The position numbers and the translations under genes are program-made. This document shows, one piece after another, positions 883 through 30,739 of a DNA stretch of 32,000 bases. The stretch covers positions 1,500,001 to 1,532,000 of the forward strand of contig NC_017080.1 of assembly GCF_000284115.1 (NCBI RefSeq), in the 5' to 3' direction. The stretch's first letter is position 1; every line of letters begins with the position of its first letter. The notes beneath the pieces are model-generated. The model was not told the DNA's origin. It saw nothing but the letters and a program-made list of their open reading frames with translations, and made no database searches. The stretch comes from Phycisphaera mikurensis NBRC 102666 (lineage in GTDB: Bacteria; Planctomycetota; Phycisphaerae; Phycisphaerales; Phycisphaeraceae).

Positions 883-956
<74 letters not shown>

Positions 957-2425: not shown

Positions 2426-4648
2426 TTGGAGGCTCAAGCCGCTGGACCCCGCGGGCGGCGGGGCTTTACCCTCGCCGGCTTGACGCGACGCCGGACCGCT
2501 GCGACGGGAGCCTTCGCGGCGGCCACGGGTTTGCTCCTCCTGGCCGCGGGCGCGGGCGGTACGCCCTCCGGCGCGGCCGGCGTGGGCGCGGCGGTCGGCT
2601 GGCTGGGCGTGCTCGAGGCGGTGCTGCGGTCCAGCGGGCTGCTGGCGGGTTTCTGGCTGTCGGCTTGGGGGTTGGGCGGCCTGCTCGGCCCCCGCGTCGG
2701 GACCGGGCAGCGGCTCGCGGTCGGCGCCGCGGCGCTCCTGCTCGCGGGCTGGCTCGCGGCGTGGCTTCTGGGTGTCTCGCGGGGCGTCGCGGTGGGGGTC
2801 GCGGCGCCCGGCTGGCTGCTGCTGATCCGCGAGGCGCGGCGTCGGCCGGTGCGGCGGGTCCGCGTGGCCCGGCGGCCGGGCTCCCTCGCCCCGCTGCTGC
2901 TCGCGCCCGGGCTCGCCTTGCTGCTGCTGGCGGCCTGCCTGCCGCCGGGCGCGGTCTGGGGCGTCGAGGCCTTCGGCTACGACGCGCTGTCGTACCACCT
3001 GCAGATCCCGCGGGAGTGGCTCGCGGCGGGGCGGATGGCCTTCCTCCCCCACAACGTCTACGCGTCGCTGCCGGGCCTGATGGAGGCGGCGTACGCGCTG
3101 GCGATGGCCGCGCTGGGCGTGGACCCCGCCGCCGGGCCGCTCGCGGCCGACCGGGCTGCGCTCGCCGCGGTGCCCTGCCAGCTGCTGCACGCCGGCTTCG
3201 CGGTCGTCGCGGCGCTGTGCATCCGCGAGGCCACCGACCGCCGCGGCGTCGCCGGCTGGGCGGCGGGGGGCGCCTTCCTCGCGTTGCCCTGGGTCGTCGT
3301 CACCGGCTCCTCGGCGTACAACGAGGCGGCGGCGATCGCTTTGGGCGCGGCGGCGTTGGGGCTGGTCGCCGCGGACGGCGGGCCGCGCGGCCCGGTTCCG
3401 CCGGCGGTCCGCGGCGCGCTGATCGGCCTCTTGCTCGGTGCGGCCTGCCTCGCCAAGCCGACCGCCGGGTTCATGCTCGCGCTGCCGCTGGGTGGCTGGA
3501 TGCTCGGCCGCGCGCTGCTGGATCCCCGCAACCGCGTCGGCTCGCCGTGCGTGCCGGGCTTGATCGCGAGGCGGCGGAGGTCCGCTGCGCTGCGCAGCGT
3601 CGCGGTGGCGACCGCCGTGGGCTCGGCGGTCCTGTCGCCGTGGCTCCTGCGGAACGCGCTGTGGACCGGCAACCCGGTCCACCCCTTCGCCACCTCCACC
3701 CTCGGCCTGGGCCACTGGACGCCCGAGCTCGCCGCCCGCTGGGCCGAAGCGCACGCACGCCCCGCCGGCGCGGGCCTCGGCGTGCTCTGGCGGCAGTGGC
3801 TGGGCAACCTCGGCTTCGCCGCCGTCGGCGGTACGCCCGTCGCGGCTTCGGTCACCGACGTCGCACGCTTCGGCCGCGAGGGCGGCTTCCCGATCCTCTG
3901 GCTGCTCGCCGCATTGGGCGCCGGCTTCGCGTTCTCCCGCCGCCGAACCCGCGGGCTGGCCGCGGGCCTCGTGGGCCTGCTCGCGTTCCAGCTCGCCGCT
4001 TGGTGGCTGCTCACCCACCACCAGAGCCGCTTCCTCGTCTTCACCGCGCTGCCGGGAGCGGTGGCGGTGGGCCTGCTCGTCGCCCGGCCCGCCCGCTCGT
4101 GTCGCCGCGGCCCCGGCGTCGCGCTCGCCGGGCTGCTCGCGGTGCTCGCCGTGGCGGTGCCCGCCGCCGCCGGCTTCGCCGTGCTCTGGGGCCAGACCCG
4201 CGCGTTCCTGGATCCGGCGACGGGCCGGCCGGTCCGCGCCGCGCCCTGGGAGCTGGTCGGCGCCCTCGCCGCCCCCGGCGTCGAGGGGCTCGACACGCAC
4301 CCGCTGGACGCGCTGCCGCCGGGGAGCCGCGTCCTCGTCGTCGCCGACAACGGCGGCCTCTTCTACGCCGACACGCCGATCGTCTACGCCAGCGCCTTCG
4401 ACGAGAACCCGCTCGCCCCGCTCATGGACCGGGCCGCGGGCGATCCGGCCCTCCTCGCCGCAGATCTCCGCGCCGCCGGCATCACGCACGTCTGGATCGG
4501 CTGGAGCGAGCTCGCCCGGTTGGGCGCCACCTACGGCGTCGACCCGCGGCTGGACCCGGCCGCCCTCGGACGCATCACCGGCGGCTGGCCCGGCGAACGC
4601 ACGCCGACCCGTGCGCTGCTCCGCGTGCCGCCCGCGACCACCCGCTGA
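2426..4648 (+). CDS. Polytopic membrane protein, candidate GT-C-type (ArnT/PMT_2-like) glycosyltransferase; start uncertain
   Basis: This is the only frame with membrane-protein-like translation across 2.4-4.6 kb. It has many hydrophobic segments and an FGYDALSYHLQIPREW loop. The first in-frame ATG (MAFLPHNV) would delete several TM segments, so TTG 2426 or a downstream GTG is assumed. Function rests on general resemblance only. Confidence 0.55.
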   Translation: MEAQAAGPRGRRGFTLAGLTRRRTAATGAFAAATGLLLLAAGAGGTPSGAAGVGAAVGWLGVLEAVLRSSGLLAGFWLSAWGLGGLLGPRVGTGQRLAVGAAALLLAGWLAAWLLGVSRGVAVGVAAPGWLLLIREARRRPVRRVRVARRPGSLAPLLLAPGLALLLLAACLPPGAVWGVEAFGYDALSYHLQIPREWLAAGRMAFLPHNVYASLPGLMEAAYALAMAALGVDPAAGPLAADRAALAAVPCQLLHAGFAVVAALCIREATDRRGVAGWAAGGAFLALPWVVVTGSSAYNEAAAIALGAAALGLVAADGGPRGPVPPAVRGALIGLLLGAACLAKPTAGFMLALPLGGWMLGRALLDPRNRVGSPCVPGLIARRRRSAALRSVAVATAVGSAVLSPWLLRNALWTGNPVHPFATSTLGLGHWTPELAARWAEAHARPAGAGLGVLWRQWLGNLGFAAVGGTPVAASVTDVARFGREGGFPILWLLAALGAGFAFSRRRTRGLAAGLVGLLAFQLAAWWLLTHHQSRFLVFTALPGAVAVGLLVARPARSCRRGPGVALAGLLAVLAVAVPAAAGFAVLWGQTRAFLDPATGRPVRAAPWELVGALAAPGVEGLDTHPLDALPPGSRVLVVADNGGLFYADTPIVYASAFDENPLAPLMDRAAGDPALLAADLRAAGITHVWIGWSELARLGATYGVDPRLDPAALGRITGGWPGERTPTRALLRVPPATTR
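3369..3414. repeat. 46-bp palindromic element, variant copy F, inside a CDS
   Basis: Left arm CCGCGGACGG (9/10) at 3369-3378, right arm CGGTCCGCGG exact at 3405-3414, interior 26 nt. It is read as xCC GCG GAC ... GTC CGC GGx and encodes AADGGPRGPVPPAVRGA in the membrane protein. Confidence 0.6.
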
Positions 4649-4701
4649 CCCTTCGCCCGGGCGCCTCGCCCACGCGGTGGGCCCTCCGCGCTCCGGGAGG
4701 C

Positions 4702-5229
4702 TCAGAAGGTGAAGCCGGCGAGGTCCAGCGGGGCGGTCGCGTCCCAACCCGACTCCCCGAGCGGGTGGACCATGAGGTGCTCCGCCTCCTCGCGGACGAT
4801 CTCGCCCGTCCGGACGCCGCGCATGTCGATCCGCGTGATCGGGTTCTTCACGGCGACGAAGCCGGCTCGCGCGTAGATGCTCTCGACGCCGAAGAGCAGC
4901 ACCGCGTCCACACCCGCCGCGCGTCCCTCCCGCAGCGCCGCCTCCACCAGCGCCACGCCGATGCCGCGTCGGCGGAAGGCCGGATCCACCGCGACCTCCG
5001 CGATGCCGAGCACGTCGAGCACGCGGTAACCCAGCCGGACCGCCCGGTGGCACACCGCGAGGTGGCCGGCGAGCGTGCCGCCGACGCGGACGAGAAAGCG
5101 GGCGTGGTGCCGGTTCTGGAAGAAGCTTCGCCCGCCGAAGTCGGTGGGGAAGACGCGGCCGATCAACTCGGCGATCTCGCGGTCGAGGGCGGGTGCGAGG
5201 CGCAGCTCTTCGTGGCGTTCGACGTTCAT
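4702..5229 (-). CDS. GNAT-family N-acetyltransferase
   Basis: ORF track 175 aa. It has the acetyl-CoA-binding motif RRRGIGVALVEAAL (R-x-x-G-x-G/A) preceded by beta-strand IAEVAVDPAF. The size is typical of GNAT proteins. Confidence 0.85.
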   Translation of the reverse strand: MNVERHEELRLAPALDREIAELIGRVFPTDFGGRSFFQNRHHARFLVRVGGTLAGHLAVCHRAVRLGYRVLDVLGIAEVAVDPAFRRRGIGVALVEAALREGRAAGVDAVLLFGVESIYARAGFVAVKNPITRIDMRGVRTGEIVREEAEHLMVHPLGESGWDATAPLDLAGFTF

Positions 5230-5234
5230 GGTCC

Positions 5235-5291
5235 GCGGAGCTCCGCCACCGCGTGCCGCGGCGGCACGCTTCCGAGAGAACCTTCTATAAC
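5235..5291. promoter_or_regulatory. Divergent control region: two perfect palindromes plus an AT-rich -10-like box
   Basis: The 71-bp gap between the GNAT ATG (5229, -) and the oxidoreductase ATG (5301, +) holds three elements. They are GCGGAGCTCCGC (5235-5246, 12-bp palindrome), CGTGCCGC-G-GCGGCACG (5252-5268, 8+1+8 palindrome) and TATAAC (5286-5291), only 9 nt before the ATG. Confidence 0.4.
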
Positions 5292-5300
5292 TTATCGCGC

Positions 5301-6323
5301 ATGGTCAACGTCGGCGTCATCGGGCTCGGCAGCATGGGCAACACCCACCTGGCCGCCTACGGCAGCGTGCCGGGCTGCAGGGTCGTCGCGGTGGCCGACG
5401 CCGACGAGGGCCGCCGCACCGGCCGCACCGGGGCCGGCGGGAACATCGAGGGACAGGGCTCCGGCGGCGGCTTCGACTTCGCCAGCGTGAGGGCCTACGC
5501 CGACGCTTCGGAGCTGATCGCCGATCCCGAGGTCCACCTCGTCGACGTGTGCCTGCCCACGCCCCTGCACGCCCGCTTCGCCGTGGCCGCGCTCCGAGCC
5601 GGCAAGCACCTGATGGTCGAGAAGCCGCTCGCCCGGACCGCGGCCGAGGCGGACACCATCGTCGCCGCCGCGGAGGAGGCGTCCGCCGGCGGGCAGATCG
5701 CGATGTGCGGGATGTGCATGCGCTTCTGGCCGGGCTGGGTGTGGCTCAAGGAGGCGATCGACGACGGCCGTTTCGGGAGGGTGCTCCACGCCCGGTTCCG
5801 CCGCGTGACCTCGCACCCGCCGGGCTCCTTCTACGCCGACGGCGACGCCTGCGGCGGGGCGCTGCTGGACCTTCACGTCCACGACACCGACTTCGTGCGG
5901 CACGCCTTCGGCGCCCCCGAGGCCGTGTTCAGCCGCGGCTACGCGAAGCACACGTCGCGCCCGGACCACGTCTGCACGCAGTATCTCTTCGGGGACGGCG
6001 GCCCGGTGGTGACCGCCGAGGGCGGCTGGGCGATGCACGAGGGCTTCGGCTTCGAGATGCAGTACGCGGTGAATTTCGAGCGGGCCACGGCCGTCTTTGA
6101 CATCCACCAGGACCCGGTGCTCACGCTGATCGACGGCGAGGGCAAGCGGGCCGTCGACATCCCCGGCGGCATGGGCTACCAGCCCGAGCTCGCCTACCTC
6201 ATCGGCTGCGTGGAGCGGGGCGAAGCGCCTTCGACTGTCACGCTGGCGGACGCGGCGAACGCGCTGCGGATCGTCGAGGCCGAGGGCCGGAGCATCGCCA
6301 GCGGCCGGATCGAGGCGCTCTGA
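5301..6323 (+). CDS. Gfo/Idh/MocA-family NAD(P)-dependent oxidoreductase
   Basis: ORF 5193..6323 trimmed to ATG 5301 (MVNVGVIGLGSMGNTHL, a Rossmann GxGxxG). The EKPLA motif is followed by the typical C-terminal alpha/beta domain. Confidence 0.88.
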   Translation: MVNVGVIGLGSMGNTHLAAYGSVPGCRVVAVADADEGRRTGRTGAGGNIEGQGSGGGFDFASVRAYADASELIADPEVHLVDVCLPTPLHARFAVAALRAGKHLMVEKPLARTAAEADTIVAAAEEASAGGQIAMCGMCMRFWPGWVWLKEAIDDGRFGRVLHARFRRVTSHPPGSFYADGDACGGALLDLHVHDTDFVRHAFGAPEAVFSRGYAKHTSRPDHVCTQYLFGDGGPVVTAEGGWAMHEGFGFEMQYAVNFERATAVFDIHQDPVLTLIDGEGKRAVDIPGGMGYQPELAYLIGCVERGEAPSTVTLADAANALRIVEAEGRSIASGRIEAL

Positions 6324-6523
6324 TGCGCGTCCGCATCGCTCCGACGCACCATTGAGGCGCGTGCCGCGGCGCTCGCGGGATGCACGAGGGCGAGCAACGC
6401 CGCGACGCCGCCACCCCCACTGGATGTGGCACCCAGACCGCAGCACGCGGCGAGCCCGCATCCCCGACCGTGCGATGAAGACCTCATCGGCATGATGAAC
6501 GACCCCGCAGCCGACCACCGAGC

Positions 6524-8452
6524 ATGAGCACCACCACCCACCCCGTCGCCGCCACCGAACGCATCCCGGTGGAGATCCATCCGTCCTCCGCGGAGGCTTC
6601 CGCCGCGGTGGCCGCCGAGATCGCGCAGCTGATCCGCACCAAGCGGGCGGCGGGGGGCAACGCGGTGCTCGGCCTGGCCACCGGCTCGACGCCCACCGGC
6701 GTCTACGACGAGCTCATCCGGCTGCACCGCGAGGAAGGCCTCTCCTTCAAGGGCGTCAAGACCTTCAACCTCGACGAGTACGTGCCGATGGCGCCCGACG
6801 CGCTGCAGAGCTACCGGCGCTTCATGGACGAGCACCTCTTCGACCACGTCGACTTCGACGAGGGCGACACCCATGTCCCCGACGGCCTGCTCCCGGTGGA
6901 GGACACCGCGGCCGGCTGCGCCCGCTACGAGGAGCAGATCCAGGAGGCCGGCGGGCTCGATCTCCAGCTGCTGGGCATCGGCCGCACCGGGCACATCGGC
7001 TTCAACGAGCCCGGCTCGGGCAAGGACTCGCGGACGCGGCTGATCTGGCTCGACCGGCTGACCCGCGCCGACGCCGCGAGCGACTTCTTCGGCGCCGAGA
7101 ACGTCCCGCGCCGGGCGATCACGATGGGCGTGGGGACGATCATGGAGGCGAAGCGGATCGTCCTCATGGCCTGGGGCGAGGGGAAGGCGCCGGTGGTGGC
7201 GGCGGCGGTGGAGGGGCCGGAAACGCCCGCGGTCGCGGCGAGCTACCTGCAGACCCACCCCAACGCCACCTTCGTGCTCGACGAGGCGGCCTCGGCGGGG
7301 CTGACGCGGACGCGGTGCCCCTGGCTGGTGGGGAGCGTGGACTGGACGCCCCGGCGGCAGCGGTCCGCGGCGGTCTGGCTGGCCCAGCGTGCGGGCAAGC
7401 CGCTCCTGAAGCTCACCGACGAGGACTACAACGAGAGCGGGCTCCAGGAGCTCGTCGCCGAGCACGGCCCGGCGTACGACGTGAACCTGCGGGTGTTCCG
7501 GGAGCTGCAGCGGACGATCACCGGCTGGCCCGGCGGCAAGCCCAGCGAGCGGCGGCGGGCGGGGGACGTCCAGCGCGAGGGCGACGACGTGTTCCCCAAG
7601 CGGATCCTGATCTTCTCGCCGCACCCCGACGACGACGTGATCTCGATGGGCGGCACGCTGATCCGCCTGGTCGATCAGGGCCACGAGGTCCACGTGGCGT
7701 ACCAGGTCTCGGGCAACATCGCCGTCTTCGACGCCGACGCCGTCCGCTTCGCGGACTTCTACAGCGAGCTCGCCGGCACGCGGGGCTCCAGCCAGGAGGG
7801 CGTGCTGAAGGAGGTCGTCGACGAGGTCGACGCGAAGGAGCCCGGCGCCGTCGACGGCGAGCTGCTCAAGAGCATCAAGCAGATCATCCGCCGCGGCGAG
7901 TGCCGCGCGGCCGCGCGGCTGTGCGGGCTGCCCACCGACCGGCTGCACTTCCTCGACCTGCCCTTCTACGAGACCGGCAAGGTTCGCAAGAAGCCGCTCT
8001 CGCGGGAGGACGTCGACCTCACCGCGGCGTTGCTCGAGCGGATCAAGCCGCACCAGGTCTACGCCGCCGGCGACCTCTCCGACCCGCACGGCACGCACCG
8101 CGTGTGCCTCGCGGCGGTCATGCAGGCGTGCGAGCGGCTGAAGGACGAGGACTGGTTCGAGCAGACCGCGGTCTGGCTCTACCGCGGCGCCTGGCAGGAG
8201 TGGCTGCCCGAGCAGGTGGACATGGCGGTGCCGCTCTCGCCCGCGGAGCTGCTCAAGAAGCGTCAGGCGATCTTCAAGCACGAGAGCCAGAAGGACCGGG
8301 CGCCGTACCCCGGGACCGACGAGCGGGAGTTCTGGGAGCGTGCCGAGGAGCGCAACCGCAACACCGCCCGGCTGTACGACCGGCTGGGCCTGGCGGAGTA
8401 CGAGGCGATCGAAGCCTTCGTGCAGTGGAGCCCGGGGCAGGAGATCGGCTGA
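6524..8452 (+). CDS. nagB: Bifunctional-type glucosamine-6-phosphate deaminase (NagB) fused to an LmbE/PIG-L-family deacetylase domain
   Basis: The N-terminal ~260 aa carry NagB motifs (LGLATGSTP, FNLDEY, LGIGRTGHIGFNEPGS). The C-terminal ~270 aa carry LmbE/PIG-L motifs (ILIFSPHPDDDVISMGGT, DPHGTH). This long NagB form is known in Bacteroidota and Planctomycetota. Confidence 0.9.
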   Translation: MSTTTHPVAATERIPVEIHPSSAEASAAVAAEIAQLIRTKRAAGGNAVLGLATGSTPTGVYDELIRLHREEGLSFKGVKTFNLDEYVPMAPDALQSYRRFMDEHLFDHVDFDEGDTHVPDGLLPVEDTAAGCARYEEQIQEAGGLDLQLLGIGRTGHIGFNEPGSGKDSRTRLIWLDRLTRADAASDFFGAENVPRRAITMGVGTIMEAKRIVLMAWGEGKAPVVAAAVEGPETPAVAASYLQTHPNATFVLDEAASAGLTRTRCPWLVGSVDWTPRRQRSAAVWLAQRAGKPLLKLTDEDYNESGLQELVAEHGPAYDVNLRVFRELQRTITGWPGGKPSERRRAGDVQREGDDVFPKRILIFSPHPDDDVISMGGTLIRLVDQGHEVHVAYQVSGNIAVFDADAVRFADFYSELAGTRGSSQEGVLKEVVDEVDAKEPGAVDGELLKSIKQIIRRGECRAAARLCGLPTDRLHFLDLPFYETGKVRKKPLSREDVDLTAALLERIKPHQVYAAGDLSDPHGTHRVCLAAVMQACERLKDEDWFEQTAVWLYRGAWQEWLPEQVDMAVPLSPAELLKKRQAIFKHESQKDRAPYPGTDEREFWERAEERNRNTARLYDRLGLAEYEAIEAFVQWSPGQEIG

Positions 8453-8458
8453 CCGAAG

Positions 8459-8504
8459 CCGCGGACCGTCGGCGGTTTCAGCGCGAAACCTCCACGGTCC
8501 GCGG
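8459..8504. repeat. 46-bp palindromic element, copy A; likely nagB terminator hairpin
   Basis: The arms are exact and extend to 11 bp (CCGCGGACCGT / ACGGTCCGCGG). The interior has its own stem GGTTTC-agcgc-GAAACC. It starts 6 nt after the nagB stop codon. Confidence 0.85.
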
Positions 8505-8560
8505 TCTCCAGCCGAAGCCCGCCGGGGCGGCGCGAGCGCAACTCGCGAACCCGAGGAGGC

Positions 8561-10549
8561 TCAGCGCAGCGGATCCAGCGGCCGCAGCGTTGCTTCGAGG
8601 CGGAGCGTGCCGTCGGGGGCGGCGGAAGTGGTCCAGCGGAGTCGGGTGACGCCGGGCAGCGGGGGGCCGAGCAGGCCGGCGGGCGGGGCGGCCGGCTCGG
8701 CGTGCCAGCGGCCCGCCCGGCTGGAGGTCATCTCGACGCGGAGCATCTTCCCGTCGCGGCGGAGCGTGGCGCTGTCGCCATCGACCTCCACGGCGGCCTC
8801 GGTCATGAGCGTCCAGGCGACGGGCTCCTCGCGGGCGGCGGGGGCGAGGCCGGTGAGCTCGTCGGTGACGGTCACGCCGCGGTCGGGTCCGGGATCGAAC
8901 ACGAAGCGGCGGGTGGCGGTGGCGACCGACGCGCCGAGCGGCGCGGCGAGATCGAGGGCGGCAACGCCCGGGAGGTTCTCGCCGGGCGGAGCCAGCGGCT
9001 CGACGGCGATCAGCGGAGCGAAGCCGTCCACGCGGTGGAGCGCTCCGCCGATCGTCAGCGTGTTGTGCGCCTCGTTGCGGTGGTGGTAGACCCGCCAGCG
9101 GTCGCTGCCCTGGGCCCGGTCCCAAAGGTCGATCCCCTGGCTCTCGATGCTCTCGTAGTCCACCTTCCCCGGGTCCATCGCCCAGCGGACCCCGTCGGCG
9201 TCGAGCACGAAGGAGCCGGCGTCGAGGTGGCCGTGGCTGACCGAGCCGCGGCCGCCCTTGATGGCGAGGTACATCGCACCGGGGTCGCTCCATCGCTCGC
9301 GGAAGAAGGCCACCGGGTTGGGGCCGCCGCCGGACCAGCTCCGGGGCGCGTCCTCGCCGAGGGCCGTCGGGTCCAGCCGCAACCACCACAGCGGCGTGAA
9401 GACCCGGAAGCGTCCGTCGGCGGCGGTGGCTTCCTCCCAGCCGCCCGCCCGCCAGGCCGCGAGCCACCCGGGGGCGTTTGCTTCTTCCGCCACCCAGAGG
9501 AAGGCGGGGGTGAAGCTCACGCGCTCGCGGGAATCCGAGAAGTTGAAGGATCGGCCGGTGGGGCCGCGGGCGTGGGCCATGAACCCGCCGCTGGCGAGGA
9601 AGCCCGGCTCCTGCGCGAGGCCGAGATCGGTCCCCAGCGCCGTCCGCAATGCATCGAGCAGGAGGCACTGGTACGTGGTTCCATAGCTCCAGTAGGCCGG
9701 CCCCTCGGGGTGGACGCCGTCGGGAGCCATCGCCTGCAGGGCCCGGGGGTTGTGCTCCCGCACCGCGGCCAGCAGCTCGGCGAGGGCTGCGGGGTCGTCC
9801 TCGGCGATGGCCAGCGCCGCGAGGGTCAGGCCGCCGAAGCCCACGGGGTTCCAGTTGTGGGTGGCGAGCTGCCAGTGCCAGCCGTGCCGGCTGGCGGTCC
9901 GCTGGCGGAGCGCCTTGGTCTGCAACGCTCCGCGGAGGGCGACGCGGGTGTCGTCGGACAATGTGTCGAAGAGCCAGTCGTAGCCGAGGCCCACGGCGGC
10001 GGCCATCTCGGCGGTGTCCAGGAAGTGCGTGGGGTTCCAGTCGGTGAAGCCGGCGACGGCCAGCAGCTCCTCCTCGGCGCGGCGGGCGAAGCGGCCGTCG
10101 CCGGTGGTGTGGAAGGCCAGGGCACAGGCGGTGATCCGCTCCAGCGCCTCCCGGGAGACGCGCAGCAGCCGCCTCCCGACCTGCTCCCGCTGGAGGGTGG
10201 GCTGGTCGAGGCAGGCGCGGGCGCGGGCCTCCACGTTCCGCAGCAGCGCGTCCAGCACCGCGTCGCCGGCGCGCTGCGCCCGCAGGGCCGCGAGACGCTC
10301 GGGGGTGGCGATGACCCGCGGGTGACCGGCGCGAACCTCCGGCATCGACGCCAGCGGCGGGGACGGCGGCGGCGGGCCGGGGGCGGCGGGGTCCGCGGAG
10401 GTGGGCATGGCCGGAGCAGCGAGGGTCAGGCAGAGAGTGGCGGCCACGCGCAGTCGACCGCGGCGGCGAGGAGTCAGCGCTCCCCGGGCGGCGGGCCGCG
10501 GGCCACGAGCGGGCGCCCGGTGTCGGCGGCAAGAGGCCGATTGGCGCAT
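8561..10549 (-). CDS. Heparinase II/III-family protein (polysaccharide lyase-like), secreted
   Basis: ORF track 662 aa. Motifs THNWNPVGFGGL, HPEGPAYWSYGT, SHGHLDAGSFVLDADGVRWAMDPG and HNTLTIGG are typical of the heparinase II/III / DUF4962 architecture. The Arg-rich N-terminus (PRRRGRLRVAATLCL) may be a Tat-type signal. Confidence 0.82.
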   Translation of the reverse strand: MRQSASCRRHRAPARGPRPAARGALTPRRRGRLRVAATLCLTLAAPAMPTSADPAAPGPPPPSPPLASMPEVRAGHPRVIATPERLAALRAQRAGDAVLDALLRNVEARARACLDQPTLQREQVGRRLLRVSREALERITACALAFHTTGDGRFARRAEEELLAVAGFTDWNPTHFLDTAEMAAAVGLGYDWLFDTLSDDTRVALRGALQTKALRQRTASRHGWHWQLATHNWNPVGFGGLTLAALAIAEDDPAALAELLAAVREHNPRALQAMAPDGVHPEGPAYWSYGTTYQCLLLDALRTALGTDLGLAQEPGFLASGGFMAHARGPTGRSFNFSDSRERVSFTPAFLWVAEEANAPGWLAAWRAGGWEEATAADGRFRVFTPLWWLRLDPTALGEDAPRSWSGGGPNPVAFFRERWSDPGAMYLAIKGGRGSVSHGHLDAGSFVLDADGVRWAMDPGKVDYESIESQGIDLWDRAQGSDRWRVYHHRNEAHNTLTIGGALHRVDGFAPLIAVEPLAPPGENLPGVAALDLAAPLGASVATATRRFVFDPGPDRGVTVTDELTGLAPAAREEPVAWTLMTEAAVEVDGDSATLRRDGKMLRVEMTSSRAGRWHAEPAAPPAGLLGPPLPGVTRLRWTTSAAPDGTLRLEATLRPLDPLR

Positions 10550-10684
10550 CCGCCGAGGTTAGCGGGCTTCCCCACCGAGCCGGCCCGGCCGCGCCCGCTG
10601 CGTGCGTTGAAGCGCTCGACGGAGCCGCCGAGCGAGAACCCGCCGGGAACCGAAGAAAGCGACGCGGCTCCCTGCGGCGCCGAA

Positions 10685-11004
10685 GCACGCACCGGGCCTG
10701 CCTCGCGGCGGTCTGCCAAGCCTGCGAGCGGCTGAGGGGCGAGGACGGGTTCGAGCAGACCGGGGTCTGGCTGTACCGCGGTGCCGCTCTCGCCCGCGGA
10801 GCTGCTCAGGAAGCGTCAGGCGATCTTCAAGCACGAGAGCCAGAAGGACCGGCCCCGTACCCCGGGACCGACGAGCGGGCGTTCTGGGAGCGTGCCGAGG
10901 AGCGGAACCGCAACACCGCCCGGCTCTACGACCGCCTCGGCCTCGCCGAGTACGAAGCCATCGAAGCCTTCGTGCGGTGGGCCCCCGGCGAAGAGGTCGG
11001 CTGG
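10685..11004 (+). pseudogene. Decayed duplicate of the nagB-LmbE 3' end (corresponds to 8091-8452)
   Basis: Hand alignment gives roughly 85-90% identity to 8091-8452. A 41-nt block (8188-8228) is missing, there is a 1-nt deletion near gaccgg|ccccgtacc, and the stop TGA has become TGG. ORF 10781..11206 begins MPLSPAELLRKRQAIFKHESQKDR, copying the nagB C-terminus, then frameshifts. Confidence 0.85.
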
Positions 11005-11010
11005 CCGAAG

Positions 11011-11056
11011 CCGCGGACCGCCGGCCGTTCGGGCCCCACAGGCCCGCGGTCCGCGG
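11011..11056. repeat. 46-bp palindromic element, copy B
   Basis: Both arms are exact and the interior is 26 nt with an inner stem GGGCC-ccaca-GGCCC. It sits at the end of the nagB pseudogene fragment, 152 nt upstream of the GHL10 start. Homology between the two nagB 3' copies ends just inside this element, a few nt beyond its left arm. Confidence 0.85.
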
Positions 11057-11207
11057 ATCCACGCACGAGGCGCCGCGTCGGGTTCCCCAACCGGAGTTGC
11101 CGTCCGCCGCCGCGGACCGCATCCCCCTTGCGGCCGCCCGGCGGACCCCCGTCGATGCCGGCCGCGGGAAGACCGCGATCCGCCGGCACCGCCCGGCGGT
11201 CGCTAGG

Positions 11208-12506: not shown

Positions 12507-12508
12507 CG

Positions 12509-13204: not shown

Positions 13205-13279
13205 CGCTTGCCGTCGCCCGGGTCGCTCGCGACTGCTGCGCCGCTTGGCCCGCGGCGGCCTTCAGCCTGCGCGAAGCCT

Positions 13280-14074: not shown

Positions 14075-14151
14075 CCGAAAACCTCCTCGTGGGGGAGGAG
14101 CCGCAACCCGGCTCCCTGGAGTTCGCCGGCAGCGTGCGCGGCGGTGCCAAA

Positions 14152-14180
14152 ATGGTACTAGAAGATCGGGATCGGATCAA
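14152..14180 (-). promoter_or_regulatory. Candidate sigma70-type promoter for the PC1 gene
   Basis: On the minus strand the AT-rich island reads TTGATC (14180-14175), a 17-nt spacer, then TACCAT (14157-14152), about 75 nt upstream of ATG 14074. The spacer contains GATCGG-GATCGG-ATC. Confidence 0.35.
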
Positions 14181-14292: not shown

Positions 14293-14321
14293 CGGTCGCC
14301 CCCCTCTCATCCCCCATCGTC

Positions 14322-19910: not shown

Positions 19911-19964
19911 GCAACTCCCTGAAAGCTAAAACGTCTGGAGGAGGAGGGGAGATCCCCGATGTCG

Positions 19965-19997
19965 GTGGCCGCGGCCACGCTCGATGATACTATAAGA
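19965..19997 (-). promoter_or_regulatory. Candidate promoter/operator of the GHL10-MurQ-like operon
   Basis: The minus strand reads TCTTATAGTATCATCG (19997-19982, containing TATAGT). Downstream lies the perfect 14-bp palindrome GTGGCCGCGGCCAC (19965-19978). The element ends 71 nt upstream of ATG 19910 (gap 19911-19981). Confidence 0.5.
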
Positions 19998-20000
19998 CTC

Positions 20001-21196: not shown

Positions 21197-22087
21197 ATGC
21201 GCCTGGGCGTGCTCGGCGTCGACAGCTCGCACCTTCCCGAGTTCACGCGTCGCATCGCGGGCTTGAACGAGGCCGGGGCCACCCGCTGCCGCGTGGTGTC
21301 GATGTTCGACGCGGGCGACCACCAGCTGCCCGCGGCGGACGTCGCCGGCTGGGTGGCCGAAGCGAAGGCCATGGGCGTGCAGGAGCGTGGCTCGGTCGAG
21401 GAGCTGCTCGGCGGCGTCGACGGCGTGCTGGTGCTCGCCGTCGCCGGCGGCCGCCACCTGGAGCTGGCGGAGCCGGCGCTGCAGCGTGGCTTGCCGACCT
21501 ACGTCGACAAGCCGCTGGCCTGCACCGCCGCGGACGCCCGGCGGCTCGCCGCCCTCGCGGAGGAGCACGCCGCCCCGTGCTACTCCGCCTCGAGCCTCCG
21601 CTTCGCGGCCGAGCCGGTCGCCGCCGCGGCGGACGCGTCGCTGGGCGACATCGTCGCCGTCGACGCCTTCGGGCCCGGCGAGCTGCTCGACGCGAACCCC
21701 GGCGTGCTGCACTACGGCGTGCACGCGGTGGAGATGGTCGACGCGGTGCTGGGCCCCGGCGTCGCGGAGGTCGCGGCGGAGTCGACCGCGGACCGCGACC
21801 TGGTCCGCCTCCGGTACGCCGACGGCCGGGCCGCCACGCTCCGGCTGGAGCGCAGGGGCAGCTACGACTTCGGCGCCGCCGTTCACGGCACCGCGGGAGC
21901 GTCCTTCTTCAAGGTCGACTTCGCCACCGTGTACGACCGCCTCGTGGAAGCGATGGTCGGCTTCTTCCGGGGCGGCCAGGCCCCGGTCCCGCTGTCGCGC
22001 ATCGTCGAGAACGTCGCCGTGATGGAAGCCGCGAACCGCTCGCGGGAGACCGGCGGCGGGTGGGTGAAGCCGGACGGCGCGCCGTGA
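21197..22087 (+). CDS. Gfo/Idh/MocA-like oxidoreductase, variant N-terminal motif (GVLGVDSSH)
   Basis: ORF 20972..22087 trimmed to ATG 21197 (MRLGVLGVDSSHLPEF). It has a VDKPLA motif. It belongs to the G-x-D-x-S-H subgroup I recall from Planctomycetota and Verrucomicrobiota. Confidence 0.72.
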   Translation: MRLGVLGVDSSHLPEFTRRIAGLNEAGATRCRVVSMFDAGDHQLPAADVAGWVAEAKAMGVQERGSVEELLGGVDGVLVLAVAGGRHLELAEPALQRGLPTYVDKPLACTAADARRLAALAEEHAAPCYSASSLRFAAEPVAAAADASLGDIVAVDAFGPGELLDANPGVLHYGVHAVEMVDAVLGPGVAEVAAESTADRDLVRLRYADGRAATLRLERRGSYDFGAAVHGTAGASFFKVDFATVYDRLVEAMVGFFRGGQAPVPLSRIVENVAVMEAANRSRETGGGWVKPDGAP

Positions 22088-23052
22088 GCGACGGCGACCC
22101 GCCCTGGGCCCGGCTGCCGCGGACCGCGGGCGTTCCGATGCTCAAAGACGCGCGGTCCGCGGATTCCGCGTTGCTCGACGGCCTCTTCGAGCTGCCCGCG
22201 GGCTCGGCGCTCACGGTCGCCGAGGTCGCCGCCGACGGCTCCCTCGTCGCCGCCCGCTGGCGCGGCACCGGCGAGACGCTTTTCTACCCCGCCAGCACGA
22301 TCAAGTGGACGACCGGGGCGCTCGCGGTCGCGCTCATGGACGAGCACGATCTCCCGCCCGAGGCGGTGTTGGCCGTTGGCGACCGGCCCGCCGCGACGCT
22401 GCGCGACCTGGTGCTCTCGATGCTGCAGGCCAGCGACAACGACGCCTTCAACGCGCTGCACGAGTGGGTGGGCACCGCCGAGACCCACGCCGCCATGCGA
22501 TCCTGGGGCTGCACCCACGCGATCGTCCGCCGGCACTTCATGAACCCGCGGTTCACCGGCAGCCCCGCCTGCGTCGCCCGCCGGCCCGACGGCAGCGAGG
22601 TCGTCTTCGAGGCGAAGCCCGAGGTCGACATGCCGCTCTCGACCGACCGGCCGCCGCCGGACGGCAACCCCGAGGCCAACGCCTTCACCACCGACGACCT
22701 CGTCCGCGTGGGCGCCGCCACGCTGATGGGCCCGATCCGCGACGCCGCGGCCTTCGGCCTGTTCGCCTGCGGGCTGTCGTGGACCTGCCAGGCCTACGTC
22801 CGCGCCGGCCTCGCCCGGCTCACCGCCGGCCGGCCGGACCGCCCGGGCTTCGTCGTACTCAACAAGCCCGGCTGGTGGCCACCCGACGGCGCCAACAGCG
22901 AGTTGAACTACGTGCACGACGTGGCGCACGGCCGGCACCTCTTCCTGGCGGTGTACGCGCAGGGCACCGAGGCCGAGGCGGAGGCGGGCGTGTCGGCGGC
23001 GGCCGAGGCCGTCGGGGCGGCGCTGCTGGCGGGCCGTCTTCGGCTCGCCTGA
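22084..23052 (+). CDS. Class-A beta-lactamase-like serine hydrolase (S-x-x-K, S-D-N); start uncertain
   Basis: Motifs ASTIKW (SxxK), QASDNDAFN (SDN) and NKPG (KTG-like). GTG 22084 overlaps the upstream stop (GTGA), but a 46-bp palindromic element occupies 22117-22162. Alternative starts are ATG 22138 (in the element loop) and TTG 22171. Confidence 0.72.
   Translation: MSDGDPPWARLPRTAGVPMLKDARSADSALLDGLFELPAGSALTVAEVAADGSLVAARWRGTGETLFYPASTIKWTTGALAVALMDEHDLPPEAVLAVGDRPAATLRDLVLSMLQASDNDAFNALHEWVGTAETHAAMRSWGCTHAIVRRHFMNPRFTGSPACVARRPDGSEVVFEAKPEVDMPLSTDRPPPDGNPEANAFTTDDLVRVGAATLMGPIRDAAAFGLFACGLSWTCQAYVRAGLARLTAGRPDRPGFVVLNKPGWWPPDGANSELNYVHDVAHGRHLFLAVYAQGTEAEAEAGVSAAAEAVGAALLAGRLRLA
22117..22162. 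repeat. 46-bp palindromic element, copy D
   Basis: The arms are exact and extend to 12 bp (CCGCGGACCGCG / CGCGGTCCGCGG). The 26-nt interior contains ATG 22138. It starts 29 nt after the stop of the preceding gene. Confidence 0.85.
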
Positions 23053-25332: not shown

Positions 25333-25378
25333 CCGCGGACCGTCGGCGTTTACGCTGCGCCGGCTCCACGGTCCGCGG
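25333..25378. repeat. 46-bp palindromic element, copy C, in a 5' leader
   Basis: The arms are exact and extend to 12 bp (TCCGCGGACCGT 25332-25343 / ACGGTCCGCGGA 25368-25379). The interior has an inner stem CGGCG-tttacgctg-CGCCG. It ends 10 nt before ATG 25389. The interior starts and ends like copy A. Confidence 0.85.
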
Positions 25379-25388: not shown

Positions 25389-27056
25389 ATGCCCGACACC
25401 CTCCAGACGCCCATCCTCATCGTCGGCGCCGGCTGCGGCGGCTTCGCCGCCGCGCTCGCGGTTGCCCGCGCCGGCGGCTCCTGCGTCCTCACCGAGCCCA
25501 CCGATTGGGTGGGCGGGCAGCTGACCAGCCAGGCGGTGCCGCCGGACGAGAACGCCTGGATCGAGCCGGACGTCGGCGACGCGCAAGCGGCGACGGCGTC
25601 GTACCTCGCCTTCCGCGAGGCGGTCCGCAGCCGCTACCGGCGGGCGGAGTGCCTGACCGCCGCCGCCGCCGCCCGGCCGCGGCTCAACCCCGGCGACGGC
25701 TGGGTCAGCCGCCTGTGCTTCTCGCCCCGCATCGGCCAGGAGGTGCTCCGGGAGACGATCCGCCCGCACGTGGAGGCGGGGCGGATCCGCCTGCTCCTCG
25801 AGCACGAGCCGGTTTCCGCGGACGGCGCCGCCAACCGCGTGCGGAGCGTCACGGTCCGCGGCGGCGACGGCCGCGAGACCCGCATCGCCGCCGACTACGT
25901 GCTCGACGCCACCGAGGCGGGCGACCTGTACCCGCTGACCGGCTGCGAGCACGCCGTGGGCGCCGAGTGCCGCGACGCCTACGGCGAGCTGCACGCGCCC
26001 GCCGGCCGCGGCGACGGCCCCGGCGGCAGCCACCCGCGCGACCAGCAGGCCGTCTCGTGGTGCTTCGCGATGGAGCACCGGCCCGGGAGGAACCACGTCG
26101 GTCCCGAGCCCGAGGGCTACGCCCGCTGGCGCTCCTTCGTGCCGGACCTCGACCCGCCCTGGTGCGGGCCCCTGTTCTCGTGGCTGTCCCCCGGGGTCGA
26201 CGAGAGGCCCCGCGAGATGGGCATGGTCCCGTGGCCGGACCGGCCCGCCGACGGCGTCTGGGAGCTGTGGCGGTACCGGCGGATCGTCGACGCCTCCGCG
26301 CACACCGACGGCCGGCCCGACGTGTGCCTGGTGAACTGGGTGCAGATGGACCAGTTCGTCGAGCCGGTGCTGGGCGTGAGCCCCGATGCCGCCCGGGCCG
26401 CGCTTAAGCTCGCGAAGCAGCAGGCGCGCTGCCTCTTCCACTGGATGCAGACCGAGGCCCCGCGGCACGACGGCGGGCGCGGCTACCCGGGCTTGAAGCT
26501 CCGCGGCGACGAGCTTGGGACCGACTCGGGCTTCGCGAAGGCGGCCTACATCCGCGAGCCCCGCCGGCTGCTCGCGCGGACGATCATCCACGAGGGGCAC
26601 CTCGGCGCTGCGCAGCGTCGGGCCGCCGGCGAGCCGGAGGTCCCCGAGCTCGCCACGACCCTCGGCGAGTCCGTCCCCGCCGCCGAGCCCTTCGCCGACG
26701 CGGTCGGCGTCGGCCACTACCGCCTCGACCTGCACCCCAGCTGCGCCGGCCGCAACAGCGTCTACGTCGAGGCCGCGCCGTACCGCATCCCGCTCGGCTC
26801 GCTCATCCCCGTCCGCGTGGAGAACCTGCTCGCCGCCGGCAAGGGCTTCGGCGTCAGCCACGTGGTCAACGGCTGCACCCGGCTTCACCCGGTCGAGTGG
26901 ACCGTGGGGGAGGCGGCCGGCGAGCTCGCCGCGTGGTGCCTGGAGCACGGCCGCACGCCCGCCGAGGTGCACGCCGACGCCGCGCAGACCCGTCGCTTCC
27001 AGGACCGGCTGCGGGCCCGCGGCTTTGCGCTGGCCTGGCCTTGGGAGAAATCCTGA
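25389..27056 (+). CDS. FAD-dependent oxidoreductase (FAD_oxidored/PF12831-like)
   Basis: ORF track 555 aa. The N-terminus is ILIVGAGCGGFAAALAVARAG....TEPTDWVGGQLTSQAVPPDE (dinucleotide-binding fold), followed by a DATEAGDL motif. Confidence 0.85.
   Translation: MPDTLQTPILIVGAGCGGFAAALAVARAGGSCVLTEPTDWVGGQLTSQAVPPDENAWIEPDVGDAQAATASYLAFREAVRSRYRRAECLTAAAAARPRLNPGDGWVSRLCFSPRIGQEVLRETIRPHVEAGRIRLLLEHEPVSADGAANRVRSVTVRGGDGRETRIAADYVLDATEAGDLYPLTGCEHAVGAECRDAYGELHAPAGRGDGPGGSHPRDQQAVSWCFAMEHRPGRNHVGPEPEGYARWRSFVPDLDPPWCGPLFSWLSPGVDERPREMGMVPWPDRPADGVWELWRYRRIVDASAHTDGRPDVCLVNWVQMDQFVEPVLGVSPDAARAALKLAKQQARCLFHWMQTEAPRHDGGRGYPGLKLRGDELGTDSGFAKAAYIREPRRLLARTIIHEGHLGAAQRRAAGEPEVPELATTLGESVPAAEPFADAVGVGHYRLDLHPSCAGRNSVYVEAAPYRIPLGSLIPVRVENLLAAGKGFGVSHVVNGCTRLHPVEWTVGEAAGELAAWCLEHGRTPAEVHADAAQTRRFQDRLRARGFALAWPWEKS
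25816..25861. repeat. 46-bp palindromic element, variant copy G, inside a CDS
   Basis: Left arm CCGCGGACGG (9/10), right arm exact, interior 26 nt. Same codon phase as the other coding copies; it encodes SADGAANRVRSVTVRGG. This segment looks like a native part of the FAD fold, so its origin is unclear. Confidence 0.5.
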
Positions 27057-28486: not shown

Positions 28487-29299
28487 ATGAACGCCTCCTC
28501 CCCCCGCCGTTCCGGTTTCACCCTGATCGAGCTGCTGGTCGTGATCAGCATCATCGCCCTGCTCATCGGGATCCTGCTGCCGGCGCTGGGCGCGGCCCGT
28601 GCGAGCGCCCGCACCCTCTCTTGCCTCAGCAACATCCGACAGATGACGATCGCGACGCTCAACTACGCGACCGACAACAAAGACGAGCTGCCCACGACGT
28701 TCGTGACGGACAACAACAACGACGGCACGAACGACCTCTGGTTCGACAAGCACATGATCGGGTACTACCTCCCCGACAGCGGCGTCTCCAGCTCGGCCTC
28801 GATCGATGGCTTCGCGTTCATCTGCCCCTCCGACGAGGGGAGCGTTCGCACCTACTCCATGAACGCCCGCGCGGCCAGCGACGCCAAGGAAGTCGGCATC
28901 AACAACGAGCGGAACAGCTCCTTCGACCTCAACGCGGGCGCAGGCACGCAGCTGATCCTCTTCGGAGAGGGGTGGGGGCGGTTCGGCACCGAAGCGCAGC
29001 ACTTCTCCAACGCCACGATCGGCGCCGAGGCCGGAACCACCCCCGGCGGACGCTTCGGCGGCACAGCGACGACGTTCAACAACCTCGCCTTCTACGGAGC
29101 CGCGAACGCCGCTCAAGCCAACACCAACTACCTCCTCCACGGCGGTGACGACATCAACCGTGCCGACGGTGCGAGCAACTGGACCTTCCTGGACGGGCAC
29201 GGCGAGACGGCGCAGCAGGAGACGCTCTACGATGCGTCCACGGGGCTCTCGACGTACAAGTTTCTGTGGTCGGAAACCGACCGGCAGTCCGAGCCGTGA
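28487..29299 (+). CDS. Prepilin-type N-terminal cleavage/methylation-domain protein (DUF1559-like pseudopilin), copy 2
   Basis: The N-terminus [33 protein letters not shown] is nearly identical to copy 1 and includes a 29-nt identical DNA stretch. The C-terminus is [10 protein letters not shown]. The stop lies 6 nt before the binding-protein GTG. Confidence 0.9.
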
Positions 29300-29305
29300 G
29301 CTCGT

Positions 29306-30739
29306 GTGGTCGCTCGCTTCCTCCTGATCGCCGTGCTCGCGGGCTTGCCGCTGCTCAATGCGTGCGACCGCCGGAGCTCCGACGCGAAGCGCCTGGAGGT
29401 CTGGACCCTCGCCCTCTCCCCCTACTTCGACGACTACCTCACCGGCGTGTTCGGCGCCTTCGAGGCGGAGCATCCCGGCACCGAGGTCGTCTGGGTGGAC
29501 GTGCCCTTCGACGCGATCAACCGCAAGCTGGTCGCGGCCGCGGCGGCGGGGCGGGCGCCGGACGTGGTGAATCTCTCCGACCGTGATTTCGCTCGCGTGG
29601 CGGCGCTCGGCGGCCTGGCGGACCTCGACCCGTTGCTCGCGGACGGCGTGGTCGAGCGGTACCTGCCGGGCGCGGTCCGCGGGTTGCGGCTGAACGGCGG
29701 CCTGCGGGCGCTGCCGTGGTACCTGACGACGCAGGTGCGGATGGCCAACGCGGCGACGCTCGCCCGCGGCGGGCTCACGCCCGACACGCTCGCCAACGAC
29801 TGGACCGGGCTGCGCGACCAGGCGCGGGCCTACCACGAGGAAACCGGCGGCTTCCTCTTCTCGGTGCCGCTGGGCGAGACCTCCGAGCTGCCGATGATGC
29901 TGCTCAGCGAGGGCATCCGGCCGTTCCGCGAGACGCCGGATGGCTTGGTCGCCGACCTCACGCGTGAAGAAGTCGCCGGCTACGTCTCCGCCTGGGTCGA
30001 CCTCTACCGCGAGGGCGCCCTGCCCCGCGCCGCGGCCACCCGCGACCACACGCACCTGGTCGAGGGCTACCAGAAGGGCGAGATCGCGCTGATCCAAACC
30101 GGCAGCAACATGCTCGGCCGCATCCGCGACGCCGCGCCCGACGTGTACGGCGAAACCGTCGTGAAGCCCGGCGTCACCGGCCGCCTGCAGCGCTCGCACA
30201 TCGCCGCCATGGTGGTCGGCGTGAGCGGCAGAAGCGAACACCCCGAGGAGGCGGCCGCGCTCGCCGCCTTCCTCACGAGCCCCGCCAGCCAGACCGGCCT
30301 CTCCAAGCAAAGCGGCGTGCTGCCCTCGACGCCCGCCAGCCTCGACGACCCGTACTTCGCCTTCCCGGAGGGCGCGTCCGATGATCCGGAGGCCCGGCTC
30401 ACGGAGGCCCGCGCCACCAGCGCCGCCTCGCTGCGCACCGCCGTGGCGTTCACCCCCGCGATGGAGACCTGGCCCGAGCTGCGCCGCGCCTTCAACGAGG
30501 GCATCAAGCGCGCCCTGCTCGGCGGCGAGCCGACCGCCGGCGTCCTCGCCTCCATCGAGGCCGAGTGGAACCGCATCCTCGCCGCCGCCCGCCCCGTCGG
30601 CCCCGACGCCCTCCCGCCGGCGTCCCGGGTGCCACGCCCCTTGGGGGGTGGCGTTGGAAGTTCGGTGAGCGTCCCCACCCCCCAAGGGGCGTGGCACCCG
30701 GTTCCGGCCGCGGGCCTCGTCCTGCCGGAGGCCGCGTGA
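29306..30739 (+). CDS. ABC transporter extracellular solute-binding protein (family 1/CUT1-like), lipoprotein
   Basis: GTG 29306. Lipobox LPLLNAC. Motifs PDVVNLSD, YLPGAVRGLRLNGGLRALPWYL and GEIALIQTGSNM are typical of sugar-binding proteins. The last ~45 codons run through the 30625 inverted repeat and look non-native. Confidence 0.82.
   Translation: MVARFLLIAVLAGLPLLNACDRRSSDAKRLEVWTLALSPYFDDYLTGVFGAFEAEHPGTEVVWVDVPFDAINRKLVAAAAAGRAPDVVNLSDRDFARVAALGGLADLDPLLADGVVERYLPGAVRGLRLNGGLRALPWYLTTQVRMANAATLARGGLTPDTLANDWTGLRDQARAYHEETGGFLFSVPLGETSELPMMLLSEGIRPFRETPDGLVADLTREEVAGYVSAWVDLYREGALPRAAATRDHTHLVEGYQKGEIALIQTGSNMLGRIRDAAPDVYGETVVKPGVTGRLQRSHIAAMVVGVSGRSEHPEEAAALAAFLTSPASQTGLSKQSGVLPSTPASLDDPYFAFPEGASDDPEARLTEARATSAASLRTAVAFTPAMETWPELRRAFNEGIKRALLGGEPTAGVLASIEAEWNRILAAARPVGPDALPPASRVPRPLGGGVGSSVSVPTPQGAWHPVPAAGLVLPEAA
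29637..29682. repeat. 46-bp palindromic element, variant copy K, inside a CDS
   Basis: Left arm TCGCGGACGG (8/10 to consensus), right arm exact, interior 26 nt. Same codon phase as the other coding copies; it encodes LADGVVERYLPGAVRGL, which looks like a native binding-protein segment. Confidence 0.45.
30625..30701. repeat. Perfect 27-bp inverted repeat with a 23-nt loop (REP-like hairpin) at the binding-protein/permease junction
   Basis: The left arm CCGGGTGCCACGCCCCTTGGGGGGTGG (30625-30651) is the exact reverse complement of 30675-30701. I verified this base by base. It lies within the last 115 nt of the 29306 ORF. Confidence 0.92.

Follow-up and report, generated by a model that had tools for sequence, protein, structure and literature searches.

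A 46-bp inverted-repeat motif with rigid arm spacing, formed by substitution within genes of Phycisphaera mikurensis and its relatives

Ten copies of a 46-bp element in the Phycisphaera mikurensis window

The window analyzed here, a 32-kb stretch of the genome of Phycisphaera mikurensis (Planctomycetota) with 73.8% G+C, carries ten copies of a 46-bp element composed of two inverted arms on either side of a 26-bp interior. Five of the ten lie inside open reading frames (ORFs), and comparison of four of the genes concerned with their relatives indicates that the coding copies are very probably native sequence shaped at the DNA level. An earlier note on this DNA had reported four copies within unrelated genes, at 3369, 17363, 25816 and 29637, and both their positions and the peptides quoted for them proved correct; the copy at 22117, which it had treated as intergenic, lies within a beta-lactamase-like gene. 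Gene calls for four of the five coding copies were taken from assembly GCA_014207395.1, while the call for the copy at 3369 rests on the third-position G+C (GC3) of its flanks. The copies are the following:

825 to 870 (no strand): perfect copy, CCGCGGACCG-N26-CGGTCCGCGG, non-coding, between an ORF at 42-728 (+) and tRNA-Pro at 883-956 (-)
3369 to 3414 (+): coding copy with one mismatch (C9G) in a membrane-protein ORF (2282/2564-4648), phase xCC GCG GAC...GTC CGC GGx, peptide AADGGPRGPVPPAVRGA, flank GC3 0.97/0.95
8459 to 8504 (no strand): perfect copy, 7 nt past the stop codon of the NagB/PIG-L gene (6524-8452, +)
11011 to 11056 (no strand): perfect copy, located where a duplicated fragment (10685-11010 = 8091-8458) ends, upstream of the GHL10 gene
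15163 to 15208 (no strand): copy with two mismatches upstream of SpoIID (15262-16731), 11 nt past the stop codon of the DUF1559/N_methyl gene (14259-15152)
17363 to 17408 (-): perfect coding copy in the GKRP/MurQ-like gene with two SIS domains (16846-18495, -), peptide PADRGWFPLLGRPVRGI
22117 to 22162 (+): perfect copy in codons 12-27 of the beta-lactamase2-like gene (22084-23052), phase 0 (CCG CGG ACC...CGG TCC GCG), read as P-R-T...R-S-A-D
25333 to 25378 (no strand): perfect copy, separated by 10 nt from the downstream ATG of the FAD oxidoreductase gene
25816 to 25861 (+): coding copy with one mismatch in the FAD oxidoreductase gene (25389-27056), peptide SADGAANRVRSVTVRGG
29637 to 29682 (+): coding copy with two mismatches in the gene of an ABC solute-binding protein (SBP; 29306-30739), peptide LADGVVERYLPGAVRGL

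The membrane protein carrying the copy at 3369 matched no Pfam family. The NagB/PIG-L gene is convergent with a heparinase-like gene (8561-10549, -).

The unit is a pair of arms at a fixed distance

A search of the 32 kb with the pattern CGCGGAC-N{20,45}-GTCCGCG returned nine matches where 0.33 were expected, with N equal to 30 in every case, and none of 100 dinucleotide shuffles of the window reached this count. The right arm reads CGGTCCGCGG in all nine copies, while the left arm reads CCGCGGACCG in six, CCGCGGACGG in two and TCGCGGACGG in one; the three copies departing from CCGCGGACCG are all coding and carry ACGG or a leading T. Outside the pairs, the arms occur in the window at chance level (35 vs 36 for the 7-mer, 12 vs 11 for the 8-mer), and single arms of 7-10 nt show no enrichment of their own, so that the unit is the pair. 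Three solitary perfect 10-nt arms without a partner at 26 nt were seen at 7361-7370, 11110-11119 and 21786-21795, a number at chance level; the one at 11110 lies only 54 nt past the copy at 11011.

When mismatches were scored over the 20 arm bases at spacer 26, six, two and two sites of the window had zero, one and two mismatches, respectively, none had three or four, and beyond that only background was found. Since this histogram is bimodal, the tenth copy, with two mismatches (15163), is real, and the missing class with three or four mismatches reflects strong maintenance. The unit can thus be written as CCGCGGACCG(Y)-N24-(R)CGGTCCGCGG, a symmetric site of 46 bp with AT frequently standing just outside one of the arms. 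Its terminal inverted repeats are perfect over 10-11 bp and reach 14 bp with the GAAT/ATTC flank.

The window was compared with syntenic contigs of uncultured relatives at 70-85% protein identity (L001, L002, L097, L098 and L099) and with two more distant syntenic loci (L100 and L101; 55-60% identity, 65-67% G+C); column statistics were derived from a collection of 58-59 copies from the window and loci L001-L102. A survey of arm pairs over 82 kb, allowing at most one mismatch in each arm, gave a spacer of 26 in 20 of 21 pairs and none of 25 or 27, a rigidity that holds although the coding copies arose independently in place. Within the collection, AT outside the arm (GAAT|CCGCGG or CCGCGG|ATTC) was observed on the left in 17/59 copies, on the right in 11/59 and on both sides in 3/59; in the cases inspected by eye, the extension stood on whichever side was closer to the start of the following gene.

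The interiors are unrelated between copies (on average 11.2 of 26 positions identical), and those of coding copies encode unrelated peptides that share only A-D and V-R-G. Orthologous intergenic copies have 15-16 of 26 interior positions identical against this mean of 11.2, a weak likeness which fits a free interior between constrained arms. The resemblance that the earlier note had seen between the interior of the copy at 17363 and those of intergenic copies holds for a GGTTTCCG stretch and is limited to it.

Shuffling synonymous codons while leaving the protein sequences intact gave an expectation of 1.0 coding copy in the window, against the five seen, and none of 300 shuffles reached five. 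The motif has also shaped the proteins, which makes this test conservative.

The coding copies align as native protein sequence

In the FAD oxidoreductase, the segment HEPVSADGAANRVRSVTVRG was aligned with 28 orthologues (55-84% identity) and no gap was found across the element; a single orthologue, P0103, shows a small insertion in the interior and a deletion just after it. The consensus of this segment, HEPVAADVxGDRVxSVTxRD, corresponds to the native strand before the DATE motif. The GKRP/MurQ-like protein has a GKRP_SIS_N domain, with MurQ structures matching both of its ends, and its segment PADRGWFPLLGRPVRGIGW aligns with DTAEAWRAMLGRPIRGLDW in 28 orthologues with no indel and with four invariant columns (W368, L372, R374 and W381). 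In the SBP, LLADG-VVERYLPGAVRGLR aligns with LLPGD-PxxxYLPGALRLGR in 21 more distant homologues, again with no gap inside the element. For the gene carrying the copy at 22117, conservation of the N-terminus reaches relatives at 55-60% identity; the L099 gene carries the copy, and the L097 orthologue has the same length and perfect third-position G+C with four arm mismatches and no motif.

No indel was therefore found at any of the four alignable coding copies of the window (17363, 22117, 25816 and 29637), nor at a second site in the SBP gene that is polymorphic between relatives, and inspection of the flanks revealed no target-site duplication. Where copies differ between relatives (the second SBP site and 22117), the difference consists of substitutions only, with no indel of the length of the element. 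These alignments show the four copies to be native coding sequence and not insertions. The suggestion that the copy at 17363 was an in-frame insertion in a poorly conserved linker, like the Rickettsia palindromic elements (RPEs), is refuted by its residue-for-residue alignment, and the wider proposal of old in-frame insertions fails in the same way at 25816 and 29637; the interiors of these last two copies, which the earlier note had thought to look native, are so. An in-frame repeat inside genes need not be an insertion, which is a caveat for repeat annotation.

One further copy, L001 6416 in the hypervariable C-terminal tail of the SBP, coincides with extra length. This tail is non-conserved and lies at the permease junction. 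In the window (30640-30700) it holds a hairpin-like sequence, CCCCTTGGGGGGTGG...CCACCCCCCAAGGGG; in L001 (6416-6461) it holds the 46-bp element, and in L002 (about 6810-6960) another repeat of ~65 nt, present twice.

Copies arise by substitution and their arms are held at the DNA level

In the three genes compared, over five loci of relatives, orthologous codons spell the arms exactly, whereas both the interior and the remaining gene sequence have diverged. The arms of the copy at 17363 are perfect in L097 (10129) and L099 (8444), those of the copy at 25816 are exact in L001 and L002 with a diverged interior, and the same two relatives carry the same arms at 29637. Among codons for the same residue, 21/21 are identical in the arms, whereas elsewhere in the genes the figure is 992/1368 (72.5%; Fisher p=0.002); the corresponding count in the interior is 11/23. 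This result bears out one of the possibilities left by the earlier note, namely that the arms are selected at the DNA or RNA level.

Copies outside genes are also found in relatives. The copy at 11011 has a counterpart at the orthologous place in L097 (16707), the copy at 25333 is kept in L001 (1075) and L002 (1724), and L097 has a copy with one mismatch (12745) upstream of its SpoIID gene, as the window has at 15163. SpoIID and its upstream copy (L097 12745-14315, window 15163-16731) stand at another position and orientation in L097, within an otherwise syntenic cluster.

Analysis of the second SBP site illustrates how a copy is made. The copy of L001 and L002, TESADGLVANLTSPAVRGY, stands opposite RETPDGLVADLTREEVAGY in the window, at equal length. 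Its codons are ACC GAA TCC GCG GAC GGC ... CCC GCG GTC CGC GGC in the two relatives and CGC GAG ACG CCG GAT GGC ... GAA GAA GTC GCC GGC in the window, so that about half of the bases of arms plus flanks differ, against 3/21 in the unchanged part of the interior. Likewise, in the GKRP-like protein, DTAEAWRAMLGRPIRG of the outgroup corresponds to PADRGWFPLLGRPVRG of the ingroup. Rare codons (GAA, TTT, GGA, TTG, AAA and GAT) are used where the motif is thereby extended; the counts are 39 for GAA vs 376 for GAG, 8 for TTT vs 283 for TTC, 3 for AAA vs 102 for AAG, and 30 for GGA vs 596 for GGC. The copy at L099 8444 reads in sense GAA TCC GCG GAC CGT GCA TGG TTT TCG ... GCA CGG TCC..., a perfect inverted repeat of 16-17 bp inside an ORF.

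These sequences show that the copies in genes were built in place by point substitutions, some of which changed amino acids or forced rare codons, and that copies are gained and lost among relatives by clustered substitutions at unchanged length. The arms, once formed, are kept constant at the DNA level, and only the 26-bp interior drifts. Demands at the DNA level have altered residues in conserved enzymes and imposed codons whose use is 1-10% that of their synonymous alternatives.

The codon phase follows codon usage

The four copies named in the earlier note all start at 1 mod 3 from the start of the coding sequence, with distances of 805, 427 and 331 on the plus strand and 1087 for the minus-strand gene (16846-18495). 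The shared phase holds for these four and is not a rule, as phase 0 is used by the copy at 22117 and by one copy in a relative. From the codon usage of the window itself, 84.7% of coding copies would be predicted in the phase xCC GCG GAC CGx...xCG GTC CGC GGx, 14.6% in the phase CCG CGG ACC...CGG TCC GCG and 0.7% in the third. A tally over eight independent coding sites (the four named copies, 22117, the second SBP site, L033 and a DEAD-box helicase in L099) gave 6/2/0. The phase bias is therefore real, to the extent that codon usage predicts, and this match means that it does not speak for a mobile element that carries a reading frame. The phase bias is a coding cost: A-D...V-R-G spells the arms with preferred codons for common residues.

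Arm mismatches, pairing and composition

Reading of the copies revealed no compensated arm mismatch among about nine independent ones. The C9G change places a G-G clash in four independent genes, and the synonymous and commoner change GCG>GCC, which would restore the pair, was never seen. This mismatch recurs because a perfect left arm demands Arg after A-D, Gly (GGC) being the alternative with one mismatch. In 58 copies, interior pairs showed no covariation beyond column composition except at 11-36. Predicted folds of real copies are no better than those of chimeras joining the left half of one copy to the right half of a different one (-30.3 vs -29.7 kcal/mol; z=-0.9 for 46 non-coding copies). 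A/T accounts for 50-76% at positions 18-19 and 28-29, against a background of 72% G+C, but these positions are non-complementary; pair 19-28 is AA or TT in 18 copies vs AT or TA in 11.

A search of Rfam 15 at gathering score returned only tRNA-Pro, with no match at the copies. An intrinsic terminator was rejected, as no T-run follows any copy and a terminator scan of 1-20000 gave none at the copies. A CRISPR repeat and an integron attC site were both rejected by anatomy, the copies being dispersed and not arrayed and the interiors being native coding sequence.

Distribution of the motif

Among 185,579 reference genomes, the exact 20-base pattern returned only 26 singleton matches, in unrelated high-G+C genomes and none in Phycisphaera. 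It was found only as singletons in viral contigs, and blastn of a consensus copy gave only chance Streptomyces matches. The same pattern was present in 53 metagenome contigs, about 35 of them from one marine assembly (ORXU01) and two from Ga0115029. The contigs bearing copies encode LeuRS, an MreB-like protein, a V-ATPase subunit, OMP decarboxylase, an IS481 transposase and others; this diversity of genes means that the motif is genome-wide and does not mark a local regulon. An operator for a GntR/LacI-type regulator of the amino-sugar cluster was rejected, since the copy-bearing contigs carry unrelated housekeeping genes.

The syntenic loci L100 and L101 contain no copy and no other recurrent inverted repeat. 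These comparisons suggest that the motif is clade-specific, reaching from P. mikurensis to relatives down to about 70% protein identity, and it would provide a sequence signature for DNA of the Phycisphaera clade in metagenomes. About 37 kb of P. mikurensis sequence was read for counts and holds 11 copies, while two 19-kb loci of relatives hold three each. Literature searches for the arm sequence, and for P. mikurensis together with 'palindromic', found no description of the motif.

Comparison with known repeated motifs

The highly iterated palindrome HIP1 of cyanobacteria, GCGATCGC, is lineage-specific, over-represented within and between ORFs, and conserved beyond neutral turnover; it was found to be neither a peptide nor an RNA motif, and a chromosomal role has been suggested for it (PMC5861425, PMC4390886). 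The present element is likewise over-represented within and between ORFs and conserved between related genomes, and its CCGCGG core is mildly enriched at synonymous sites (116 vs 84.5). Unlike HIP1, a single 8-bp word that may exceed one occurrence per gene, it consists of two 10-11-bp arms at a rigid 26 bp, occurs about once per 3-4 kb, and shows no enrichment of single arms. Cognate orphan methyltransferases are known for HIP1, which is still not fully understood after three decades.

Uptake sequences accumulate in coding DNA by substitution, in the frame of preferred codons and at tolerant residues, and are common to close relatives (PMC2817400). As in the uptake signal sequences (USS) of Pasteurellaceae and the DNA uptake sequences (DUS) of Neisseria, the coding copies of our element were made by substitution and their frame follows preferred codons. 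These sequences are short single motifs that act alone with proven uptake machinery, whereas the element is bipartite with fixed spacing.

Repetitive extragenic palindromic (REP) sequences and bacterial interspersed mosaic elements (BIMEs) of enterobacteria and pseudomonads share with the element a palindromic unit of about 35-50 nt and many dispersed copies placed after genes or between co-directional genes. BIMEs consist of REP units paired in inverted orientation with fixed linkers, and gyrase and IHF bind to them. REP sequences are strictly extragenic, are spread by REP-associated tyrosine transposases (RAYTs) and decay gradually, whereas half of the copies in the window are inside ORFs, made in place, and none is decayed. 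The element resembles RPEs and intragenic MITEs (miniature transposable elements with inverted repeats) in being a palindromic repeat in frame inside unrelated genes. The Rickettsia RPEs are insertions of about 150 bp that bring a conserved peptide (PMC10969869), and about 100-150 bp would be expected of an RPE-like element; the present one has 46 bp, adds nothing, and the residues are native. In its evolutionary behaviour the element matches HIP1 and uptake sequences, and in its anatomy neither of them, as these are short single words acting alone.

A candidate duplex recognition site and its alternatives

The reading that we put forward, and to which we give about an even chance, is that the element is a clade-specific bipartite recognition site in double-stranded DNA, read as two half-sites. 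This reading is favoured over a hairpin by the rigid spacer, the uncompensated arm mismatches, the lack of interior covariation apart from 11-36, folds no better than those of chimeras, and A/T positions that are not complementary. The arms would form these half-sites on the duplex, read by a putative symmetric (dimeric) sequence-specific protein that measures the fixed distance between them. The A/T patches, one helical turn apart around the dyad, may ease bending between the half-sites; as they would also stand about one turn from the GGWCC centres of the arms, all four features would fall on one face of the helix, an arrangement that would suit a DNA-bending protein. Sites would be kept at roughly one per 3-4 kb, where the local sequence affords them, by selection or by recognition-driven molecular drive, much as HIP1 is in cyanobacteria or uptake sequences are in Pasteurellaceae and Neisseria. 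Candidate roles include nucleoid structure, a self-marker or DNA processing.

More tentatively, the copies may be the landing sites of a dedicated, clade-specific dimeric protein that binds or processes DNA, with half-sites 36 bp apart and the DNA bent between them. If this were true, the need for such sites would suffice to remodel protein sequences and codon choice across the genome, and the element would represent a new chromosomal punctuation, neither HIP1-like (a single word) nor REP-like (mobile and extragenic). Iterated words that override coding constraints, such as HIP1, uptake sequences and Chi, are rare windows onto chromosome-level functions. A long, bipartite and rigidly spaced motif specifies its reader far more tightly than an 8-mer, and a 54-bp duplex, together with arm and spacing mutants, would be a bait for identifying the putative reader protein.

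Several observations weigh against a duplex site. To our knowledge, no binding protein for the motif has been described. Only three extra copies were found in 71 kb of metagenome contigs, so the density of the window (about 1 per 3.4 kb) may not apply throughout. The invariant arms are able to form a stem of 10-11 bp, and pair 11-36 covaries (Fisher p=0.003). Finally, the intergenic copies occupy places that are usual for REP-like RNA hairpins, past stop codons and just before start codons: those at 825, 8459 and 15163 lie 7-13 nt past stop codons or the 3' end of the tRNA, and the one at 25333 lies 10 nt before a start codon. Template-switch correction of quasi-palindromes is a known mutational process, and it may account for the covariation at 11-36 and for the occasional perfect arms of 13-17 bp.

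The stem, the covarying pair and the intergenic positions are also what would speak for a REP-like hairpin in single strands, either in RNA or in DNA exposed by replication, which would act in mRNA stabilization or processing, in transcription pausing or termination, or as the substrate of a hairpin enzyme such as a RAYT. The arms are indeed perfect inverted repeats, the predicted folds reach about -30 kcal/mol, and the palindrome is extended to 13-17 bp in some copies (L099 8444 and L001 1557). We nevertheless consider this reading unlikely. A hairpin gives no reason for a loop of fixed length, yet the spacer is 26; the arm mismatches stay uncompensated, even where a synonymous change is all that is needed; and the two halves of the interior show no complementarity within copies beyond the shared consensus. 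The copies have no T-run, and neither the terminator scan nor Rfam gave a match at them. A stable GC stem of 10 bp amid five ORFs would burden translation, and REP elements are extragenic by definition.

The element could also be a signal for DNA uptake or transfer, in which case the machinery would prefer fragments bearing the motif and recombination would fix mutations that improve it, in genes as elsewhere, by molecular drive. The evolutionary signature is that of uptake sequences, with substitution in coding DNA, a frame of preferred codons, tolerant residues and sharing among close relatives only (PMC2817400). Known uptake sequences, however, are single motifs of 9-12 bp, whereas single arms are not enriched here, and a bipartite signal of 46 bp would be unprecedented; a tail of near-consensus copies with three or four mismatches is also missing. 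We know of no report of competence in Planctomycetota, and this explanation is in our view improbable.

That the coding copies go back to a small mobile palindromic element of the MITE or RPE type, inserted in frame and later domesticated, is very improbable. The terminal inverted repeats, the many dispersed copies, the extra length that coincides with the SBP tail copy of L001 and a segmental duplication ending at a copy would all agree with it. Against these stand the unbroken alignments described above, which refute an insertion at 17363, 22117, 25816 and 29637, the absence of an indel at the second SBP site, a length of 46 bp that is no multiple of 3, flanks without target-site duplication, the lack of copies in intermediate decay and interiors unrelated between copies. 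The remaining explanation, in which the coding matches arise by chance or as a side effect of codon usage and of common A-D and V-R-G peptides in a 74% G+C genome, agrees with the favoured phase and with the A-D-like and x-R-G residues that the native proteins already had at these places, but is refuted by a codon-usage expectation of about 1e-5 perfect copies per 10,000 codons, by the dinucleotide (0/100) and synonymous (0/300) shuffles that never reach the observed counts, and by the conservation of the arms at synonymous sites in relatives.

Other features of the window

A segmental duplication joins 8091-8504 and 10685-11056: the final ~370 nt of the NagB/PIG-L gene occur again 2552 nt downstream (85-99% identity, a single 41-nt deletion). 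Its homology ends at the element, where the arms are identical and the interiors agree at 14/26 positions, the level of unrelated copies, so that the rearrangement junction coincides with a copy.

Between the peptidase M42 and membrane-protein genes, two tandem units of about 147 bp (2096-2239 and 2243-2387) are 90-94% identical. When the genes of the window were compared with synonymous shuffles, the enrichment of CCGCGG given above corresponded to z=4.3, while GCGCGC was strongly avoided (13 vs 47, z=-5.6), as were GGCGCC and CTCGAG. These hexamer biases hint at methylation or restriction pressures. Paralogous genes of the DUF1559 type with a prepilin-type N-terminal methylation motif share 76-81% DNA identity over their 5' ends (14358-14528 and 28514-28684).

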